Assembly (NCBI GenBank): GCA_963697895.1
Contig: OY969100.1
Coordinates: 992,001-1,056,000 of the forward strand
Direction: 5' to 3'
DNA: 64,000 bases
Source of the DNA: an uncultured Methanomicrobiales archaeon
Lineage (GTDB): Archaea > Halobacteriota > Methanomicrobia > Methanomicrobiales > Methanospirillaceae
Position numbers and translations under genes: made by a program. Shown here piece after piece: positions 22,015-47,362 of this stretch (position 1 is the stretch's first letter; each line of letters begins with the position of its first letter). The notes beneath the pieces are model-generated. The model did not search any database. It saw only the letters and a program-made list of their open reading frames with translations, and was not told where the DNA came from.

Positions 22015-23168
22015 CAGATCACCCCGGTAAGGAGGAATACACCCAGCAGAATGAAGAGTGCACTCCCGGCGACCGCAATGACCACCATGGCCGGCACGTA
22101 CCGGAAGATCTCTGTTCTCACTCCGGTCCGCGACGTAAAGGTCGTGCACCCGGTAAAGTTCAGGGCCAGGTACGCGGTCACGACCGGGATGAGGAGGAGC
22201 ACGATCAGTGCGGCAAGCACATTCGCCGGGAACGGCAGCACGGGGTTTCCCGCAGAGAATATCGCAAAGGGTAATGCGACGATCAAACCGAGAATGAGCC
22301 CCTTCGTGCTGAAATCACGGGTGGGGATGAAGGGAAGCAGGGCCGGGAAGAGCACGGTTCCCGCGAGAACGGCGGCTATTGCCGCGAATGCCGCGACCGG
22401 TCCCGCAAGAAAGTACAGAACGATCGCTGCCACGAAGGTCGGCAGTGCAACGTGCACGAATTCCACCGGGGCAAGAACGATCCGGTCCCTGAAGGTGAAC
22501 TGTACCCGGCGCATACCGGGCGTTGCGTTATGCGATTCCAGGTATTCCGGGAGGTCACGTGAACGGACCGGGCCGTATTCCACGGTAAAACCGGAGCGTC
22601 GTCTCACTACATGGGCCGCAATGCCCGGGGCACCGAGTTGCGGAAGAACGAGGGTCCGGTGCCGGACGACCGAGGAAAGCCCGGTGAGTTCAATTCTCCG
22701 GACCAGTTCATCGGTCCCGAACGTCCCTTCTCCGGCGGCACACCAGACATTAATCCCCTTCGTGTCGAGGACGAGAATATACCCGTCGATACCCGCGAGT
22801 GCGGAACGGACCGCATCGAAACTGAGCGTGTAATTCGCCGAGACGAGAACGGGGGAATCGGGTGAGGGTTCCCCGATCCGGTACAGGCCGGGCGCTACGC
22901 GGTGTCCCATCCGGTTCACCCCCCACCGGGCAAGCAGATGATCGATCCTGTCGGCGGTGGAGAGCGTTCCGGAGGTCACGAAGATCCCGGGCGCCGGATT
23001 TGTCGTGCATTGGCAGGGTGTCGTATCCGGTTGACATTGACAGGATGTTGTTTCCTCCTGACATTGACAGGATGTTGTTTCCTCCTGACATTGACAGGAT
23101 GTTGTTTCAGACCGGTTCCGATCCGGGCAACAGGGCGGGGTAGGGGCAGCGGCCGTATCATTCTCCAT
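22014..23168 (-). CDS. hgcA: Mercury methylation corrinoid protein HgcA
   Basis: PGLYRIG.P..DSPVLVSANYTLSFD, LDTKGINVWCAAGEGTFG cap helix, LPQLGAPG, C-terminal TM domain with NFTGCTTFTS.TGV..E. Confidence 0.95.
   Translation of the reverse strand: MENDTAAAPTPPCCPDRNRSETTSCQCQEETTSCQCQEETTSCQCQPDTTPCQCTTNPAPGIFVTSGTLSTADRIDHLLARWGVNRMGHRVAPGLYRIGEPSPDSPVLVSANYTLSFDAVRSALAGIDGYILVLDTKGINVWCAAGEGTFGTDELVRRIELTGLSSVVRHRTLVLPQLGAPGIAAHVVRRRSGFTVEYGPVRSRDLPEYLESHNATPGMRRVQFTFRDRIVLAPVEFVHVALPTFVAAIVLYFLAGPVAAFAAIAAVLAGTVLFPALLPFIPTRDFSTKGLILGLIVALPFAIFSAGNPVLPFPANVLAALIVLLLIPVVTAYLALNFTGCTTFTSRTGVRTEIFRYVPAMVVIAVAGSALFILLGVFLLTGVI
23005..23108. repeat. 27-bp coding tandem repeat in the hgcA 5' region (3 near-exact copies plus 1 degenerate; encodes ETTSCQCQE)
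   Basis: TGACATTGACAGGATGTTGTTTC starts at 23032, 23059 and 23086; degenerate copy at ~23005. Confidence 0.93.
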
Positions 23169-34392: not shown

Positions 34393-36924
34393 CTAATCCC
34401 GCAACCTGAACCGGATCGCCCGGTCATGAATGATGTCGTCGTAATCGGCACCAGAGGCCGTGGCCGGATTGAGGTAGGCCCGGTAGCCGATGATTATCGG
34501 GTCGTTAAGCCCGAGACAATAACCGGGGCTCGCGCACGGATGTTCCGGGGTTGCGGTCGGCACGACGACAAAGTATTTGTCATGCTTGTCCTGCGGCGGC
34601 TGGCGAAGCACCTTCACCGCGTACAGGTAGGGCGCCATCGGGTCCCCGGGGATGTATTCCTCTGCGCTCCCGGTGAAAGCGTGGCTGGTCATGCTCACCA
34701 CGCCGTTCCAGCTGCGGTCGCCGCACCCGAACACGTACTGCCACGGGTTGTCCTGGCACGAACTGGTGACCCAGTCTCCGTACACCCCGAAATTGGAATA
34801 GGTAGCCAGGCCGGTTGCCGCATGGTTGACCCCGTAGACCACAACCATATCGTCGTTCCCCAGCGTGAAATTGGCAGCCTCGCCGGAAAGCGACGTCCGC
34901 AGGTAGGGCGTGTCGGAGCCTTCCCCGGCAACGAACTTGTGGTAGAGGGGCGAGCCGGGGTCAGCCTCCTCCAGCACCTCCCTTGAATCGGCAAACCAGC
35001 GGATGGATTCATAGGATTCGTAACTGACATTGGGCGTCTGGGCGAGGATGGCGTTTTTCAGTCGCTCCAGCCCGGCATTCAGGTCGGGATAGAGCTCGCT
35101 CTCGCTCCTCCATGTGCGGACCCGCTGCCCGGGCGTGGGGTAAGGGTCCAGCACCGGCGCCTGTTCGGGCGTAACCCGCCATACCCTGGCATAATGGTCG
35201 TCACTGAGGTACTGGTCCCCCTCGGCCTTGCTGGCGAAGTTAGCCGTGCGCATCAGGATGACAAACGAATCGGCGAGCGGGGTCTCGGGAAGGACGCCGA
35301 GATTCAGCAGCCCGGAAGGAATGACATAGGGATTGATCATGGATTCGGGATAGCCGGCCGCCCGGGCCATGGCCGCTACATGCTCGTAGACTCCCCTGTC
35401 CGCCGTGAAGATCACGATCGTCTGTTTGCTGAAGGGTGTGCCGCCCCCCTCGGTCTTGATCAGGGCGTTGTTCAGCGGATCGTTCACGGCGGCGTTCATC
35501 CAGTCCCCTTTGCGAACGAGGCTGTCCTTGTGCCGGACCCAGAGGTAGACCGTGAAGCTGAAGTAGTCGCACTGTGGCGGGGTCGGCCCCAGGTAGACAA
35601 CAGCCTCGTCAGGCCTGAGCCGAAAAATCGTGAGCCCCCTCTCGAAAGGATTTTCCTCGCCGAGAGGGGAGATCGGAACCATCAGCACTTTGTAGGGTTG
35701 GCCTGCGTTGTTGCCGTTGGCTGAATCACCGATGCCGGAGTCCAGCAGATCGACGATCGGATCGACGGGTGTCATTTGGCCGCTGTTGACAATAAATCCG
35801 TTTGCCTCCAGCGTTGCCCGAAAGGACGCAGCCCGGCCCTGGTCCTCGTCACTGGCGCCGGGCGGAACTATATCGGGCACGGTAACAGGGAGTATGTCAC
35901 CGGGTGCGATGATGTCCGGTTGCACAGGGAGTATGCTGGGCACGGTAACAGGGATTATGTCACCGGGTGCGATGATGTCCGGTTGCACAGGGATTATGCT
36001 GGGCACGGTAACAGGGATTATGTCGCCGGGTGCGATGCTGTCCGGTTGCACAGGGATTATGTCGCCGGGTGCGATGCTGTCCGGTTGCACAGGGATTATG
36101 TCGCCGGGTGCGATGCTGTCCGACGGTTTGAAGGTATAGGGAGTAATAGTAACGGTGCGGGCTGCTGAAACGGTCTTGCCGATGTAGTCAGACCCGTCGG
36201 GTGCCTTGTAGTTGTCCTTGATACCGTTCACGTTGCATTCTGCGGTGACAGTATAGACCCCGGCCTTGTACATCCGGGTGCCCTGGGAGTCGAGTACCCC
36301 GGTGTTCCACCCGATGGTGTTGTCGTTGTTGGGGGTCACCCAGTACGCCGGCTGCTGGGCCACATTAACCTTGAGCAGCGGGATGGAAGTGCTGGTCGTC
36401 TGATAGAGTGCGTTATACACGAAGCCGTCAGCGGTCTTCACCTTGATGGTGAACTGGCCATCAGTAGCGGCGTTGTAGTTCGGCCGCTGGGAGATCGTGT
36501 AGAGGTTACTCTCAATCCGGAAGTTCAGAAAGTCGCCGGCCGGGACAGACTTACCCGAGGCATCCTTTACCGTCTTCTGGTCCCAGACCTTGACATCGAT
36601 TGACGGGTCAAGAACATTGAATGCCACTTCTCCCGGGCTGCCGGTCCACCTGTACCAGTGACCCGTTCTTCCCCCGAAGATCGAGGGCGCCACGGAGAAA
36701 TTGGCCGGATCCCCGACAGTCAATACATAATCGGGTACATCGGTTGCCGGGACGGTTCCTGCGGCAAACCATGCAAGACTTGTTGCCGTTCCTGCGCAGG
36801 CCGAAATGTCGAGACCCTGTTCACCGATGAACACATCGTTGCCTGTTCCAATCGTCTTTACCTCTGCAGAAGCAAGTGGGATAATTGCCACTAGCAGTAT
36901 GAATAGAAAATAATACGCCCTCAT
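34393..36924 (-). CDS. Large secreted protein: DUF3821-like N-terminal domain, Pro-rich repeat linker, unknown C-terminal domain
   Basis: Signal peptide; [39 protein letters not shown]; repeat linker; ~480-aa C-terminal domain. Confidence 0.85.
35870..36125. repeat. Coding tandem repeats of 39-bp ([13 protein letters not shown]) and 63-bp ([21 protein letters not shown]) units
   Basis: Repeated CCGGGTGCGATG and CCGGTTGCACAGGGA blocks, about six [12 protein letters not shown] units. Confidence 0.92.
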
Positions 36925-37484
36925 CAAGCCACCTTTTATATAGACATTACTGAATTGTTTTTTGCCATATTTTGCTATATATAAGCTTAGCAGGGAAGTC
37001 AGGGAAGTTATGGTGCATTTCTTCGCGGTTGTATGGATTGTACTCAGTAAGATTTCATATACGAGGGGGTAAAAGCATGTCTAACGGGAGTCCCTCTGCT
37101 CTGATGGGGGCGGGGGTGTTTTGCCCCGGGGTTCACCATCGGTGCTGCAATTGGCGGGGCGCCTGGCATGACCCTACACCTGATTGCCCCGGCGAAGTCG
37201 TCCAGATCCCCAGACCAATATATCTGAAGTCTGGCGAATGGCCGGTTAATGCGAATTAATCTGCCATTTTCACGTGAGTTTGCGTATGATTTCTCCATAT
37301 TTGTCAAGATTCCGCTGCTCCTGAAGGCATTTTCACCTCCGTTACCACATCCTCGTGTTCAGGCATTTCTGCGCCGTATCGAAGATTTGGATTTTGATGA
37401 AAATCAGCTCATTTTAGCATTCGCAGGTCAAAAAAGATTTGGACTCTGTCAGGAATCCCATCCCCTGCACGGTCAATCTCATTT

Positions 37485-42399: not shown

Positions 42400-42657
42400 T
42401 TAAATTTTCTCGTAAATATTCCTCCTGTGTCCGACGCGGACGACAAGGACCACCAGTTTTTGGTGCAGTATATCGAGAATAACCCTGTACTCGCCGACAT
42501 GAACGGAATACAGGGGAGAGTCGTTTAACCGGTACACAGAACTAACCGGGTCGTCCCGGATCTCCTCCAGGGTCGAGATAATCCGGGCGATCACATCCTT
42601 CGGTAATTTTTTTAAATCCTTAATCGCCCGCGGGGATAGAATGATCTCGTAGGGCAT
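42400..42657 (-). CDS. relE: Type II toxin, RelE/ParE family
   Basis: YEIILSPRAIKDLKKL, YSVHVGEYRVI, RVGHRRNIY. Confidence 0.9.
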   Translation of the reverse strand: MPYEIILSPRAIKDLKKLPKDVIARIISTLEEIRDDPVSSVYRLNDSPLYSVHVGEYRVILDILHQKLVVLVVRVGHRRNIYEKI

Positions 42658-42897
42658 TTAAAAGAGCCCTAATTCTTTTTTGGCGTCATTGAGCGTGTAA
42701 TATTTGCCGTCCCGTATCTCTTCCAGCGACTCAGCGATTGCCAGGCGGTCCTCCTCCGTCAATGGTTCGGGATCGGTCATCCGGTCGAGTAACCGGCCGA
42801 TCACCGTATCATAGGATTCTTTCGGATGAACCTTCAGCCTGGTTAACCGCTCCCGGTTTTGCGGACTGATCCGTACACACGATGTAGACGAGGGCAT
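42658..42897 (-). CDS. Cognate antitoxin (archaeal RHH-like)
   Basis: VRIS...RERL..LK.HPKESYDTVIGRLL and LEEIRDGKYYTLNDAKKELGL; its stop abuts the toxin start. Confidence 0.85.
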   Translation of the reverse strand: MPSSTSCVRISPQNRERLTRLKVHPKESYDTVIGRLLDRMTDPEPLTEEDRLAIAESLEEIRDGKYYTLNDAKKELGLF

Positions 42898-43103
42898 ACA
42901 TAAGTATACATTTGTATGCATATTATTTCTTCGATGGGGTACGATCACCGGAAAAGGTGTCAACAAGCCGTTCTTCCGGACGAATAACAGATTGTGTAAT
43001 TGTTGAATCCCGAGAAAGATCCCCCGGAGAAATTATTTCCCTGCGATTTATTCACTGGTCGAACCCCATGGATCCCAAATGGGAAAGATGGGTTTATACC
43101 ATC

Positions 43104-43538
43104 TCATCCCGGAATTTTCCTGCCTGAGCTCCGGATCAGCCCGTACTCGATCTCGTACCAGGCGGACGGGAGATCGAGGGTATAGGTCACGAGTCCTTTA
43201 TCTTCCGCTTCGGCGACCTGCCGGAGCAGGGACTGCTGGTCTTCCGGCGAATGGTCGAAGATGAGCCACCGTTTTGTCGGGTCGCTCATGGTCCACGACC
43301 GGGCCGGGATGTCATCCGGCGGGGAGGTCACGCTCTGGTCTCCCGGGTCGAAGAACGAGACGACCTGTCCGGCCCGGTCTTCTGCTGCGGCCGTCCGGTT
43401 CGCTGCCGCTGTGGCTTCGGCCTTTGCTACTGCGGTCTCCTGCTCAGCGTTCTTCTTTTTGCGGTTCTGGATGAATGCGATTGCCGCCGCGATGATGGCG
43501 GCGAACAGTTCAAAGAGCGGGATCAGTTCAGGGTCCAT
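43104..43538 (-). CDS. Hypothetical protein with N-terminal TM helix, Ala-rich coiled coil and small C-terminal domain
   Basis: MDPELIPLFELFAAIIAAAIAFIQNRKKK; AGGAG RBS; start overlaps the end of the upstream small ORF. Confidence 0.8.
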   Translation of the reverse strand: MDPELIPLFELFAAIIAAAIAFIQNRKKKNAEQETAVAKAEATAAANRTAAAEDRAGQVVSFFDPGDQSVTSPPDDIPARSWTMSDPTKRWLIFDHSPEDQQSLLRQVAEAEDKGLVTYTLDLPSAWYEIEYGLIRSSGRKIPG

Positions 43539-43677
43539 GGTATTTCTCCTTCATGCGGGCGTGTTCTTCCCGGAGCGTGGCAAACTCGCTGCAGATAACG
43601 TCGTACTTCCCGATCTTCTGGTGGATTGAGAAGAGGGCGGGGTAGAGCGGGAGGACCGCGCCGAGGATGATGGTCAT
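43528..43677 (-). CDS. Small TM plus coiled-coil protein (49 aa from ATG 43677; 54 aa if ACG 43692 is used)
   Basis: MTIILGAVLPLYPALFSIHQKIGKYDVICSEFATLREEHARMKEKYHGP; GGGGTGA RBS upstream; 11-bp overlap with the next gene; not in the ORF track. Confidence 0.7.
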   Translation of the reverse strand: MTIILGAVLPLYPALFSIHQKIGKYDVICSEFATLREEHARMKEKYHGP

Positions 43678-43714
43678 CAGTTCGTAGTCCGTGAGAGATC
43701 ACCCCCCACTTTCC

Positions 43715-44121
43715 GTGCATCGTTCATGAGAGAAACCCCGGGAGAGGCCGTCTTCCGTGCATGATCCCTGTTGAGACCTCGCCATGGTGGGATCGGGCAG
43801 TGCATCGTTCGTGAGTGAAACCTCGACGGGGGAGGGATCGGGCAGTGCATCATTCGTAAGAGAAACCTCGCCAGGGATCGATTGGTCTGTGCATCGTTCA
43901 TGAGAGACCTCGCAAGGGATCGATTGCTTTGTGCATCGTTCAAGAGAGACCTCGCAAGGGATCGATTGCTTTGTGCATCGTTCATGAGAGAACCTTGCCA
44001 GGGATCGATTGGTCTGTGCATCGTTCATGAGAGACCTCGCAAGGGATCGATTGCTTTGTGCATCGTTCATGAGAAACCTTGCCGGGGCAAGGATTGTCTT
44101 CGGTGCATCGTTCATGAGAGA
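43715..44121. repeat. Intergenic array of 10 units (42-45 bp period) with a conserved GTGCATCGTTCATGAGAGA core and semi-variable linkers
   Basis: Cores start at 43715, 43757, 43800, 43845, 43889, 43931, 43973, 44016, 44058 and 44103. Confidence 0.95.
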
Positions 44122-44131
44122 CAACTTCCGG

Positions 44132-44263
44132 TGACGGCAGGCAGGATCCAGAAAATCTGCCGGAAAGGTTCCCGATCTTGCCGGGTGAGGGAGAGGACGT
44201 GATGAGGGGGGAGAAGAGGGGGAACTCTTCTCTCCCGGGTGACTCCCGCCGTTCCTGCCGTCA
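44132..44263 (-). other. Putative structured RNA/DNA element between the 167-aa gene and the array
   Basis: TGACGGCAGG (44132-41) and CCTGCCGTCA (44254-63) form an inverted repeat that encloses a GGGGGAGAAGAG/CTCTTCTCTCCC hairpin (~44207-44236). Confidence 0.5.
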
Positions 44264-44272
44264 GGCGTTAAT

Positions 44273-44776
44273 TTACGCAAGGGCCGGGACGCTGTCGGCC
44301 CAGGTCTCCACCGTTGTCCGGATCGCGTCGTCCGAATACGAGGTGATCCGGACCTGGTCGCGGCTGAAGGTCACGTAATACACCTCGCCGTTCGGGTCGT
44401 GGCACTTGAGCGAACAGGAATAGCTCTCCGCTCCGGAATCCCGGACCGCCGTCCCGCCCATCGCGGTGGCCAGCGGTTCGTTCCCGAGGATCTCGGCGAG
44501 GCTCGCATTGAACCCGGCGGGGGTCTTTGCCCGTGCGGTGACGACGCCGACGCTGGCCGCCTCTTCGTCCTCGTAGACGACGTGGACGGTGTAGTTCTCG
44601 CGGTTCTTCATGACCGGGTCCTGCGGGAGATCCCCGTAGGTGTACGCGGTGCACGCGAACGGGTTGTCCGAGATCACGCTCTGGACGATCGCGGAGAAGG
44701 TGGTCAGGTCTGCGATCGGGGCTGCCAGTTCCCTGACAGCGGTCTTGGTGTTGGTTGTCTGGACGAAATTTGCCAA
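44273..44776 (-). CDS. Hypothetical 167-aa alpha/beta protein (TTG start)
   Basis: Strong GC3 codon bias and clean globular composition: MANFVQTTNTKTAVRELAAPIAD...ETWADSVPALA. Confidence 0.85.
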   Translation of the reverse strand: MANFVQTTNTKTAVRELAAPIADLTTFSAIVQSVISDNPFACTAYTYGDLPQDPVMKNRENYTVHVVYEDEEAASVGVVTARAKTPAGFNASLAEILGNEPLATAMGGTAVRDSGAESYSCSLKCHDPNGEVYYVTFSRDQVRITSYSDDAIRTTVETWADSVPALA

Positions 44777-45379
44777 GGGTCTTCACTTCTGCCTCTTTTC
44801 AGGGAGGCAATGATATATGGGACGTATTCGATCTTAGCGTTTTACGGGGTGGAGAAACGATGGTTATATTAGGGCGGGTTTGGATAATGGATTGAGTTTT
44901 GGGGGCTGAATGGTTGCAAGGTAGCAATCGAAGCAAGAATAATTTTTTTTCATAAAATAATACACCATTCCTGATGTTATATTATAATGGAATATTTTGA
45001 AAATACTCAGAAATTTAATTGTACAATTGATTAATACACTTTACTGGCGATACCCTGAAATTCATCCGCTGGCTCAACTTGCGGGGGTATATCCTTCTAC
45101 CAATTACACGAAAATTTTTAATCAGTTCAAAGCCCGGCCGGGGCGTACCACTTTAGTATAGATTTCATCACCGAATTAAGAACCAGTCACATGTTATTGG
45201 TGAATGACGAAAGTACTTCCCATATAAAATAAAAGATGGATAATATCTATTTAGATTGAAAAATCACAACGAGATCCAGATCAACAAGCTATTAATGACC
45301 CTTGCAGAGAACCAGCTATAGGAAAATAAATTGTTCCTTATTAGAAATGAGTTTATAATTCCAAGCGCCGGGGCGATGG

Positions 45380-47362
45380 ATGCCGAACAAGGAAAAAGAG
45401 CCATCAGAACGTCCAATCGATAAGATTCGTCACGCCCTAATTGGTGCCAAAAAGAATATAGAAGACCCTTATCTTTTTCACAAATTATCCCTAATTCCCA
45501 TCCTTGCATGGGTTGGCCTCGGGGCGGACGGAGTATCCTCCTCGTCATATGGTCCTGCCGAGGCATTTACTGCGTTAAATACGCACACTTATATCGCAAT
45601 TTTTCTCGCTTTGGGCACGGCAATTACCGTGTTTATCATCTCCTATGCCTACACACGTATCATTGAAAACTTCCCGAGTGGCGGCGGGGGGTATATTGTT
45701 GCCAATCACACAATCGGGGAGAGAGCCGGTGTCATTTCCGGCTGTGCACTGATTGTGGACTACATTCTCACTATCACCGTCTCAATCGCAGCCTGTGCGG
45801 ACGCTATCTTCAGTTTTCTCCCTTACCCGTTTCAGGCTTTCAAGTTGTTTTTTGCTTCGATTCTCATTGTTATTCTCATCTTTCTCAATCTCAGGGGTGT
45901 AAAAGAGTCTGTAACCATCCTCGCCCCGATCTTCCTCCTGTTCATTGTGACGCATACCCTTCTCCTCGGGTACGGGATATTCAGCCATTCGACGGAGGTC
46001 GTGCCCATCGCCATTCAGATGCATGCCGGTTTCACAGAGGATATTGCCACAATCGGATTCATAGGAATTCTCGCAATCTTTCTTCGCGCATATTCACTCG
46101 GGGGAGGGACCTATACCGGGATTGAAGCGGTCGCAAACGGGATGCAGATTATGCGGGAGCCGCGGGTGAGAACCGGGAAGCGGACGATGGCATATATGGC
46201 TATATCTCTTGCCCTGGTATCTGGTGGCTTGTTTGTCTGCTATCTCCTCTGGGGGGTTCAGCCGGTACCAGGAGAGACCCTGAATGCGGTACTGGCAGGA
46301 GAGGTCTTTTCCGGATGGCCCCTCGGGAACGTCATGGCGCTCGTAACCATTCTGGCCGAAGGAGCACTGCTTCTTGTCGCGTCTCAGACCGGATTTATTG
46401 ACGGGCCCCGCGTCATGGCCAACATGGCGATCGATTCATGGCTGCCGAGACGGTTCGCAATCCTTTCGGAGCGCCTCACCATGAACAATGGGATTCTGTT
46501 GATGGGCGGATCGGCCCTCCTCTTACTCCTCTTTACCCGGGGATCGGTGGCCGCCCTCGTCGTTATGTACGCGATCAATGTGTTCATCACCTTCTCCCTG
46601 TCCAACTTCGGGATGTCCCGGTTTTTTTATAGAAACAGGAGTACAATTCCTCGCTGGAAAAGGCATATCCCCATCCATATCATTGGGTTCATATTGTGTG
46701 TAACCATTCTCTCAATCACTATCTTTGAAAAGTTCGGCGAGGGGGCTTGGCTCACCCTGTTCATTACCGCCCTTTTTGTCGGGCTTTGTCTTTTAATTCA
46801 TGCCCACTACAAACATGTCAGCGAGGGGATCCGGAGACTGGACGCATACCTGGAAAATGTCCCGGTTACGGGAAAGATGAATATAAATCCTGTTGATCCT
46901 CACAAGGTAACCGCGGTCCAGCTCGTGAGCGGTTACAGCGGATTCGGCCTCCGGACCTTCTTTTCCATCATCCAGACATTCCCGAACGTCTTTGAAAATT
47001 TTATCTTCGTATCGGTCGCCGTGATCGATTCCGGATCTTTCAAAGGAAAAGCAGAAGTTAAAGCACTCCAGGATTCCGTTCATGCCGATCTGGAGAAATA
47101 TGTCCAGCATGCACGGGAACTCGGTTTTGCCGCTGAATACCGGTTCGATACGGGGACTGATGTGGTTGAAACTGCGGTCCCCCTCTGTATAGACATTGCC
47201 GATGAGTTCCCTCACTCAACATTCTTCGCGGGCCAGGTTGTTTTCCGGGAGGAGGAACCGTTTCACAAAATTCTCCATAACGAAACCGCATTCGCGATCC
47301 AGAGGCGGCTGCAGTTTAAGGGAATCACGACTGTCATTCTCCCCGTACAGGCAGAAAAATAA
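45380..47362 (+). CDS. APC-superfamily permease, KimA-like K+ transporter
   Basis: LGADGVSSSSYG, FPSGGGGY, DYILT, TYTGIEAVANG, YAINVF, cytoplasmic C-terminal domain with LHNETA. Confidence 0.8.
   Translation: MPNKEKEPSERPIDKIRHALIGAKKNIEDPYLFHKLSLIPILAWVGLGADGVSSSSYGPAEAFTALNTHTYIAIFLALGTAITVFIISYAYTRIIENFPSGGGGYIVANHTIGERAGVISGCALIVDYILTITVSIAACADAIFSFLPYPFQAFKLFFASILIVILIFLNLRGVKESVTILAPIFLLFIVTHTLLLGYGIFSHSTEVVPIAIQMHAGFTEDIATIGFIGILAIFLRAYSLGGGTYTGIEAVANGMQIMREPRVRTGKRTMAYMAISLALVSGGLFVCYLLWGVQPVPGETLNAVLAGEVFSGWPLGNVMALVTILAEGALLLVASQTGFIDGPRVMANMAIDSWLPRRFAILSERLTMNNGILLMGGSALLLLLFTRGSVAALVVMYAINVFITFSLSNFGMSRFFYRNRSTIPRWKRHIPIHIIGFILCVTILSITIFEKFGEGAWLTLFITALFVGLCLLIHAHYKHVSEGIRRLDAYLENVPVTGKMNINPVDPHKVTAVQLVSGYSGFGLRTFFSIIQTFPNVFENFIFVSVAVIDSGSFKGKAEVKALQDSVHADLEKYVQHARELGFAAEYRFDTGTDVVETAVPLCIDIADEFPHSTFFAGQVVFREEEPFHKILHNETAFAIQRRLQFKGITTVILPVQAEK

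Follow-up and report, generated by a model that had tools for sequence, protein, structure and literature searches.

Methanogens are enriched in satellites, and one of them, Methanoculleus marisnigri, carries 21, of which 71% have repeats longer than 30 nt (Subirana and Messeguer 2019, PMC6749651). As described in that survey, methanogen satellites are head-to-tail repeats with units above 30 nt, unique and species-specific, properties that the tandem array described below shares; they are scattered in intergenic DNA, and the genome studied here has 36 such arrays. Unlike the satellites so described, our array lies inside an apparent operon, between a conserved hairpin and the start of the next gene, and its unit seems to be derived from the translation-start region of that gene.

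Two further kinds of repeat invite comparison. As in CRISPR arrays, a regular array is preceded by a "leader"; unlike them, it has neither unique spacers nor a repeat hairpin, and there is no Cas1 match in the window (the whole 64,000-nucleotide stretch of DNA that was analysed). Iterons and archaeal origin recognition boxes likewise consist of direct repeats with a conserved core in fixed phase, close to Orc1/Cdc6, and the family of the protein encoded upstream of our array, p167, also neighbours Orc1/Cdc6 paralogues elsewhere. However, no initiator gene lies near the array, its repeats are not conserved in any relative, and it is situated downstream of p167, not flanked by an initiator gene on one side and AT-rich DNA for unwinding on the other.

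We propose, with a probability of about 0.7, that the locus is a Methanomicrobiales-specific three-gene operon, p167 to s49 to s144, with a lineage-specific 42-bp minisatellite expanded in the spacer between its first two genes. The features concerned are, in order of transcription:

44790..44809, minus strand: hairpin in the 5'-UTR of p167, GCCTCC...GGAGGC type (RNAfold)
44273-44776, minus strand: p167, ORF of 167 aa with a TTG start
44132..44263, minus strand: intercistronic leader, a long hairpin between p167 and s49
43678..44120, minus strand: tandem array of 10 head-to-tail units of 42-45 nt
43528-43677, minus strand: s49, ORF of 49 aa
43104-43538, minus strand: s144, ORF of 144 aa
42400..42966, minus strand: type II toxin-antitoxin pair, a neighbour outside the three-gene module
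42658-42966, minus strand: small antitoxin-like gene of that pair (DUF7557, E 2.6e-5, 24 bits against a cut-off of 25)
42400-42657, minus strand: ParE/RelE-type toxin of that pair (PF05016, E 3.9e-12, 47 bits against a cut-off of 23)

ORF and repeat scans recovered, at the same positions, every feature listed in an earlier sequence-only reading of this DNA. The ATG of s144 sits 8 nt before the stop of s49, giving the two genes an 11-nt overlap. The spacer between p167 and s49 measures 595 nt; about 430 nt of this are additional, made up of head-to-tail repeats that lie between the leader hairpin and the s49 start. That reading's statement that the window holds no cas gene, reverse transcriptase or integrase agrees with genome-wide runs of the Cas1, tyrosine integrase and RVT_1 profiles, none of which matched in the window (992-1056 kb of the genome): Cas1 is matched at 23 kb alone, about 1 Mb away, the tyrosine integrase at 32 kb alone, and RVT_1 nowhere in the genome.

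Sequence and distribution of the tandem array

TRF assigns the array a period of 42 with 6.2-6.9 copies and 83-87% matches, and higher-order periods of 85 and 127. In register, 10 units of 42-45 nt can be counted between 44120 and 43732, and the final one merges into the ribosome-binding site and start of s49. Units 2-6 hardly differ from one another; units 1 and 7-10 have diverged. A 17-nt core, CTCTCATGAACGATGCAC, is kept in 8/10 units (at most one mismatch in its 15-nt motif) and is well preserved even in the diverged units 1, 7, 8 and 10. The eight occurrences of the 15-nt core at no more than one mismatch all fall in the array, with none elsewhere in the 2.09-Mb genome, and the array is far beyond chance. 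Its units share the motif GAGGT-N6-ATG, and the start region of s49 as it now stands still looks like the 5' part of a unit.

A minisatellite is the best reading of the array. It probably arose from duplication of the s49 translation-start region in a spacer whose usual length is about 100 nt. Slippage or unequal exchange may have duplicated a piece of about 42 nt with the s49 ribosome-binding site and an ancestral start codon, and the result would be neutral or at most change the amount of s49 and s144 made. Retention of the 17-nt core in diverged units could, however, mean that the core is under selection and not neutral. As in a minisatellite, the units are head-to-tail, copy number appears to differ between close relatives, and the array is not conserved at orthologous or paralogous loci.

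In TRF scans of 30, 41 and 53 loci (overlapping sets), the array was found at its own locus only, and the pair of array motifs occurs in 0/200 genomes of the same family. The 18 genome-contig and 31 metagenome-contig matches obtained from two public contig collections are all unrelated: none contains p167, s49 or s144, and none is similar at the DNA level. In close relatives (85-99% identity), about three units remain. In run X1, a contig of 485 nt links s49 with the 3' end of p167 by 147 nt, as against 398 nt in the window, and this short joint recurs in X5 and X7, the latter also having another form; these array sizes come from short k-mer contigs, in which repeats can cause breaks or collapse. 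Also counted towards the copy-number difference are a p167-cluster member and an s144 homologue from JGI, both on 1505-nt contigs. The genome itself holds 36 tandem arrays (period 20-120, at least 150 bp) with no shared units, about 29 of them non-coding by a crude ORF test.

The regular period, together with a core found in 8/10 units at no more than one mismatch, would also suit a phased DNA-binding platform, with p167 or another protein seated on the 17-nt core once per 42 bp, or four helical turns, either to control s49/s144 or to help replicate or partition what was once a mobile element. This idea gains from the extra Orc1/Cdc6 genes that adjoin p167 in other families (15/41 loci) and from an AT-rich stretch (36-37% GC) upstream of p167 in the window. 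However, no Orc1/Cdc6 gene lies in or near the window, p167 is acidic with no match to a DNA-binding family, and the genome's many other non-coding arrays are unrelated to this one. The array is, moreover, missing from every other p167, s49 and s144 locus scanned and from the 200 family genomes, and relatives appear to carry fewer units, so we regard a DNA platform as unlikely.

The combination in each unit of a ribosome-binding-like GAGGT with an ATG raises another possibility, namely that the array is translated or acts through translation, either because upstream reading feeds s49 by termination-reinitiation or because a repetitive peptide is made. A 114-codon repeat ORF (43677-44021) does end in TGATG on the s49 ATG. 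Yet with units of, for example, 45, 43, 44, 45 and 43 nt, not every length is divisible by three, and the reading frame is lost from unit to unit; the scarcity of stop codons in the unit explains why several frames stay open on both strands; and the repeat ORF is not present at other loci. A translational role for the array is thus quite improbable.

The sequence-only reading had also suggested a protein plus processed small RNAs. Such RNAs, CRISPR-like or otherwise repeat-derived, might work with p167, and in favour of this the array is regular and comes after a conserved protein gene and a structured leader. The array RNA, however, folds no better than shuffled sequence (z +0.86), which makes processed structured small RNAs unlikely, and Rfam gave 0 matches for the locus. 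The "variable" halves of the units recur between units, leaving no unique spacers; Cas1 is a megabase distant; and the array is missing wherever else p167 was scanned. Taking these points together, we find small-RNA processing scarcely credible.

Under the minisatellite reading, the array is ordinary, one more example in an array-rich genome and archaeal group, and it illustrates that a regular array beside an uncharacterised gene need not be a system. What is of interest here is the gene module, in which a widespread, multi-copy, hairpin-flanked gene has recurrent small membrane partners.

The p167 family and its small membrane partners

p167 is an acidic soluble protein with a TTG start, where its homologues have ATG. 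There are 826 homologues at E<=1e-3; those listed are exactly 167 aa long in 114 of 120 cases, and this strict length is accompanied by invariant residues at both ends. One survey placed the family in 101/121 Methanomicrobiales genomes; another count gave 44/47 Methanomicrobiales genomes as against 0/253 genomes elsewhere in the phylum. Overall, p167 is present in about 85-95% of sampled Methanomicrobiales genomes, often in 5-14 copies per genome, some of them nearly identical, and pseudogene fragments also occur.

p167 is an orphan family confined to Methanomicrobiales. The earlier description of a 167-aa ORF of no recognisable family has been borne out, as Pfam, NCBIfam, PHROG, PADLOC and PDB-sequence searches were all empty, and in the ESM Atlas the homologues P0049 and P0110 match only unnamed or own-cluster entries, below 0.9. 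A likeness to DUF2922/DUF1659 proteins, noted by eye, extends to small size, and it failed at the level of HMMs: there was no Pfam match at E<=1 for p167, and none at E<=5 for 30 family members. We found no description of the family or the module in the literature, where supplementary tables might list comparable arrays.

Three assignments were considered and rejected. A viral or plasmid origin of p167 found zero matches in IMG/VR, phage and plasmid collections, and its membership of a known defence system zero matches in PADLOC. The JGI label "pyruvate/2-oxoacid:ferredoxin oxidoreductase beta subunit", attached to three p167-cluster members, is backed by no HMM.

s49 spans the membrane once, by a hydrophobic helix at its N terminus, and has a charged helix at its C terminus. 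It shares a single hydrophobic helix and small size with YvrJ, which it had been said to recall, and differs in that no Pfam HMM matched it at E<=1, or any of 30 family members at E<=5. Its homologues occur at 22 places in 12 other genomes (50-67% identity). s144 has an N-terminal membrane helix at about residues 5-25, followed by an Ala/Thr/Glu-rich linker that varies and a C-terminal domain, at about residues 58-140, that is conserved; its 51 homologues are all unnamed or "hypothetical", and none has a Pfam match.

Could these genes have been juxtaposed by chance, with no module at all? About 44/62 p167 loci have no recognisable small membrane ORF downstream, counting ATG starts only, and L102, whose p167 is closest by sequence to ours (75%), carries a different small ORF after it. 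Against chance stands the position of p167 directly upstream of s49 in 21 of the 22 s49 matches outside the window's own genome. The p167 genes linked to s144 form one clade: 18 rows with support of 99/95 take in all 7 loci with s49 and s144 and, likewise, all 5 in which another small membrane ORF precedes s144. The overlap of s49 with s144 is itself conserved, the exact trio recurring at six distinct places in three other genomes (L107, L108, L110, L116, L124 and L129), and s144 lies downstream of p167 in 14/30 loci fetched with s144. Chance juxtaposition is already contradicted by these comparisons, and we consider it hardly tenable.

Gene order and phylogeny thus indicate that p167, s49 and s144 are a real, conserved, co-oriented module in part of the Methanomicrobiales. 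The sequence-only reading had suggested that the whole co-oriented layout is a single functional module, to be checked by whether array and small ORFs follow other copies of p167. This holds for the three protein genes and the structured leader, the small ORFs not being lacking at homologous loci; it does not hold for the array, which is missing there. The partner sets themselves vary: s49 with s144; s49 with a 160-190-aa protein and a multi-pass membrane protein; or other anchors of 40-65 aa. Loci with a small membrane ORF number at least 18/62, as read by eye from ATG starts only, and the remainder mean that the idea of a membrane partner fits part of the family only.

A fold or phenotype for p167 would allow hundreds of genes now called "hypothetical" to be annotated in a methanogen order of environmental importance, and might illuminate the integrated elements of Methanomicrobiales.

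Hairpins around p167 and a possible mechanism

Both flanks of p167 are predicted to form RNA hairpins. The 5' hairpin stops a few bases short of the purine-rich stretch that would bind the ribosome ahead of p167, and has a dG of -9.3 (RNAfold, -50..-11 region of the window's p167). Such hairpins, at dG<=-8, were found in 55/65 distinct p167 upstream regions as compared with 20/65 control windows, and their stem sequences differ.

On the other side of the gene, the leader has as its outer stem a 10-nt perfect inverted repeat (44132-44141 and 44254-44263, with 112 nt between the arms), whose sequence, GACGGCAGGA, is common to locus L172. Within it lies a G/C-rich hairpin with 12-nt arms (44207-44218 and 44225-44236), and the whole folds with an MFE of -56.3 (z -1.83 to -1.95). 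The p167-s49 spacers at other loci are 82-112 nt long in 15/21 cases and 153-473 nt in 6/21, making the window's the longest; they fold with z<-1.5 in 11/16 cases (mean z -1.78). These statistics are per-sequence folds, used because RNAalifold on MAFFT alignments of the spacers gave a poor consensus through misalignment. By its predicted fold, the leader is the local copy of the long hairpin that other loci have between p167 and s49. It offers the stable hairpin of an attenuator- or terminator-like leader; a run of at least five T is lacking, as there is a T4 run only (ATTTTC) near the 3' arm, whereas most other p167-s49 spacers have T5-7 within the 3' arm.

Together, the 5' hairpin at the ribosome-binding site and the intercistronic hairpin, with its U-run in most loci, might set a high ratio of p167 to s49 and s144. 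The latter two would be translationally coupled through their 11-nt overlap. Both are predicted to be single-pass membrane proteins with the N terminus out and the C terminus in, because positive residues follow each helix, and their putative cytoplasmic tails may recruit soluble p167 to the membrane. As part of the accessory genome, such an assembly may, for example, serve element maintenance or exclusion.

Genomic neighbourhood and integrated elements

Extra "shell" Orc1/Cdc6 genes of integrative elements have been described in archaea (Raymann et al. 2014, PMC3914693), and they resemble certain p167 loci. In families f3, f4 and f5, where p167 is multi-copy with some copies near-identical, it lies head-to-head with two genes, an extra Orc1/Cdc6 and one for an 81-aa membrane/coiled-coil protein. 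By contrast, in the window's own p167 family an Orc1/Cdc6 gene adjoins p167 at 0/10 loci with 3-kb flanks, and none does so in the window itself; p167 is also missing from the viral, phage and plasmid collections searched. The only Orc1/Cdc6 homologues of the genome lie at 1.71 and 2.07 Mb, and the array has no adjacent initiator.

The Orc1/Cdc6 genes beside p167 in other families, along with the toxin-antitoxin pair here, point to an accessory genome derived from integrated elements. One may go further and suppose that p167 with its changing sets of small membrane proteins, or with the 81-aa protein and an extra Orc1/Cdc6, is an undescribed Methanomicrobiales accessory system, in which p167, under tight constraint, would probably self-assemble, be held at the membrane and help to maintain or exclude integrated elements or to control their replication. 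We offer this broader idea tentatively and think it rather doubtful. If it were true, the 167-aa length, invariant ends, multiple copies, pseudogene fragments and RNA hairpins would mark p167 as a highly expressed, dosage-controlled structural component.

The toxin-antitoxin pair is not found beside other p167 loci. Its assignment to the RelE type, made in the sequence-only reading, is supported by the PF05016 match of the toxin, and the antitoxin-like gene ends at 42658, abutting the toxin start at 42657, in the arrangement of a type II ParE/RelE pair.

Locus layout and the p167 gene module

On the minus strand, the gene for a 167-aa protein (p167) is followed in order by a leader bounded by inverted repeats, a head-to-tail tandem array, the genes for two small proteins of 49 and 144 aa (s49 and s144), and a ParE/RelE-type toxin–antitoxin pair. 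All of these elements had been described in the sequence-only reading, and all were found in the sequence.

Features of the p167 locus
44273–44776, minus strand: p167, 167-aa ORF with a TTG start
between p167 and the array, minus strand: leader of 130 nt, with a perfect 10-nt inverted repeat (44132–44141 / 44254–44263) and an inner 12-nt hairpin
43528–43677, minus strand: s49, 49-aa ORF
43104–43538, minus strand: s144, 144-aa ORF, its ATG 8 nt ahead of the s49 stop
42658–42966, minus strand: toxin partner, DUF7557 (24 bits versus a cut-off of 25)
42400–42657, minus strand: ParE/RelE-type toxin (PF05016, E 3.9e-12)

The locus is flanked by ordinary chromosomal genes (PAS/receiver histidine kinase, amino-acid permease, ClC channel), and Cas1, tyrosine integrase and RVT_1 were without a match in the window. 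Between p167 and the permease gene lie 600 bp of AT-rich DNA (44777–45380; 36–37% GC versus 55–66% around it), which yielded no conserved gene.

The p167 gene is genuine and strongly conserved. It has 826 homologues at E≤1e-3, and among the matches listed 114 of 120 are exactly 167 aa long; F4, P39 and W159 are invariant, and conserved stretches lie at the N- and C-terminal ends. Among 121 sampled Methanomicrobiales genomes, 101 have the gene; a genome may carry as many as 14 matches, and the window's own carries one. A profile search, which also revealed fragments and copies with internal stops, detected p167 in 44 of 47 Methanomicrobiales genomes versus 0 of 253 from elsewhere in the phylum. 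The named homologues (Methanolinea, Methanoculleus, Methanoregula, Methanogenium and other Methanomicrobiales) are all called "hypothetical protein". A full HMMER scan against 1.84 billion representatives gave 611 matches, none of which tied p167 to a named family, and no match came from Pfam, NCBIfam, PHROGs, PADLOC or PDB sequence profiles; nor was p167 found in the IMG/VR, phage and plasmid collections, and literature searches retrieved no account of its family. The likeness to DUF2922/DUF1659 proteins noted earlier by eye gained no backing from the HMM searches. Three members of the 90% cluster of the window's p167 (P0324–P0326) carry the JGI label "pyruvate/2-oxoacid:ferredoxin oxidoreductase beta subunit", which is probably an annotation error, and one that could spread, since no Pfam or NCBIfam model supports it. 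Four distant relatives (P0128, P0144, P0153, P0141) have, as read from their sequences, an N-terminal lipoprotein-type signal or membrane segments, so the domain may act extracytoplasmically in these lineages.

Together with s49 and s144, p167 forms a genuine, undescribed, Methanomicrobiales-specific module. A search of the order with s49 located 22 sites in 12 other genomes; at 21 of them s49 lies immediately 3' of a p167 gene, and the remaining one is a weak match at a contig end. This upholds the earlier proposal of one co-oriented module. For s144, 13 of the 121 genomes matched; p167 lies upstream in 14 of 30 fetched loci, and most of the other 16 matched, more weakly, only the C-terminal domain. 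The same layout, p167 then s49 then overlapping s144, recurs at six distinct places (L107, L108, L110, L116, L124 and L129; L128 duplicates L108 and was counted with it), and at L106, L109, L111, L117 and L118 a different 40-aa membrane ORF replaces s49. A maximum-likelihood tree built from 71 p167 sequences places the window copy in an 18-row clade (support 99/95) that takes in all 12 s144-linked loci. Partner type requires 15 changes on the tree versus 26 with shuffled labels, a comparison tempered by the sharing of labels among related sequences. Single-helix ORFs of 40–66 aa directly 3' of p167 are of four recurrent kinds and occur at 18 or more of 62 non-redundant loci, a lower bound because only ATG starts were counted and the kinds were recognised by reading. 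For s144 there are 51 homologues, all unnamed; the protein consists of an N-terminal helix, a variable-length linker and a conserved C-terminal domain. As positive residues come after the helix in both small proteins, their predicted topology is N-out/C-in, with cytoplasmic tails.

The spacer hairpin and the tandem array

The p167–s49 spacer measures 82–112 nt in 15 of the 21 other pairs and 153–473 nt in six; that of the window, at 595 nt, is the longest. Short spacers form a single long hairpin with an outer stem (GACG.../...CGTC) and a G/C-rich inner part; the outer stem differs in sequence among loci, and a CTCTTTTT run is present in the hairpin of most. Folding gave z<-1.5 in 11 of 16 spacers (mean z -1.78). 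The window leader (z -1.83 to -1.95), whose outer stem sequence is common to locus L172, is the same element, and the structured leader of the sequence-only reading thus has equivalents kept at other loci. At normal loci, the hairpin is followed 3' by about 10–25 nt with a ribosome-binding site, and the array occupies exactly that position. In one other genome, the spacers of L063, L065 and L066 are lengthened to 413–473 nt by unrelated short palindromic repeats (GAAGAACCTTGCAGGTTCTTC... type), which look MITE-like and occur in both orientations in spacers and upstream regions; the spacer therefore seems tolerant of insertions.

Inclusion of the array in the module did not hold up: TRF detected no comparable array at other p167, s49 or s144 loci (overlapping sets of 30, 41 and 53). 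The array motif pair is missing from all 200 genomes of the family that were searched, none of the 18 genome-contig and 31 metagenome-contig matches is related, and the array occurs once in its own genome. In sediment, peat and marsh metagenome contigs with the same three genes (85–99% identity), 147 nt bridges the spacer instead of 398 nt, and a second form appears in one metagenome run. We put at roughly four in five the probability that the array is a lineage-specific minisatellite within the spacer of a conserved operon and not a component of the system.

TRF gives a period of 42 with 6.2–6.9 copies (83–87% matches) and also higher-order periods (85 and 127); aligned in register, the array resolves into 10 units of 42–45 nt. 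Units 2–6 are nearly identical, with two alternating subtypes, units 1 and 7–10 are diverged, and the last continues into the s49 start. Every unit contains GAGGT, six bases and then ATG, and the present s49 start region (CTCTCACGGACTACGAAC) is similar to the 5' part of a unit (CTCTCATGAACGATGCAC). On the simplest reading, the array would have grown as the s49 translation-start region was repeatedly duplicated in tandem. One 114-codon ORF in the array has a TGATG end on the s49 start, and translation of the repeats is kept as a minor alternative; such a coding role is unlikely, because not every unit length is divisible by three and both strands have several open frames. Folded as RNA, the array did no better than shuffled sequence (z +0.86), and it matched no Rfam family.

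Methanogens are known to be enriched in satellites (PMC6749651), and the window's own genome holds 36 tandem arrays (period 20–120 nt, at least 150 bp) with no units in common, about 29 of them probably non-coding by a crude test. Sites include 26.8–31 kb, 67.5 kb, 177 kb, 197–290 kb, 1.06–1.07 Mb and 1.87 Mb, and many crowd into the genome's initial 290 kb, close to Cas1 (23 kb) and to the sole tyrosine integrase (32 kb). Within the window, an 844-aa DUF3821 gene (34393–36927) contains 63/39-bp tandem units (35875–36122), and a perfect 27-bp repeat of 2.9 copies lies at 23032–23108.

Upstream regions, proposed role and Orc1/Cdc6 neighbours

A 5'-UTR hairpin (44790–44809, minus strand) ends right at the p167 ribosome-binding site. 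Upstream hairpins with dG<=-8 are found in 55 of 65 distinct upstream regions versus 20 of 65 control windows (loci L004–L129), their position conserved and their stem sequences varying by locus. A palindrome, GACTGTATC-n-GATACAGTC, lies at about -90 from p167 at L006, L008, L010, L024, L067–L069, L093, L106 and L129, and is possibly an operator; it is not in the window. We infer that p167 would be a soluble, abundant protein that the small anchors bring to the membrane, that the 5' and intercistronic hairpins would set operon expression, and that the module may have a role in the accessory genome.

An extra Orc1/Cdc6 gene, identified by the domains Cdc6_lid, AAA_22 and Cdc6_C, lies near p167 at 15 of the 41 loci examined with 3 kb of flanking sequence (L067, L068, L071, L072, L074, L076, L078–L081, L087, L089, L092, L098 and L099; about -100 to -3000 from p167), all in f3, f4 and f5, which are p167 groups other than the window's own family. 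None was found beside p167 at the 10 loci of the latter or in the window, and the Orc1/Cdc6 genes of the window's genome are at 1.71 and 2.07 Mb. Extra copies are generally attributed to integrative elements (PMC3914693). In 14 of the 15 cases Orc1/Cdc6 and p167 are divergently oriented around an 81-aa coiled-coil/membrane gene, and some copies at these loci are nearly identical within one genome.
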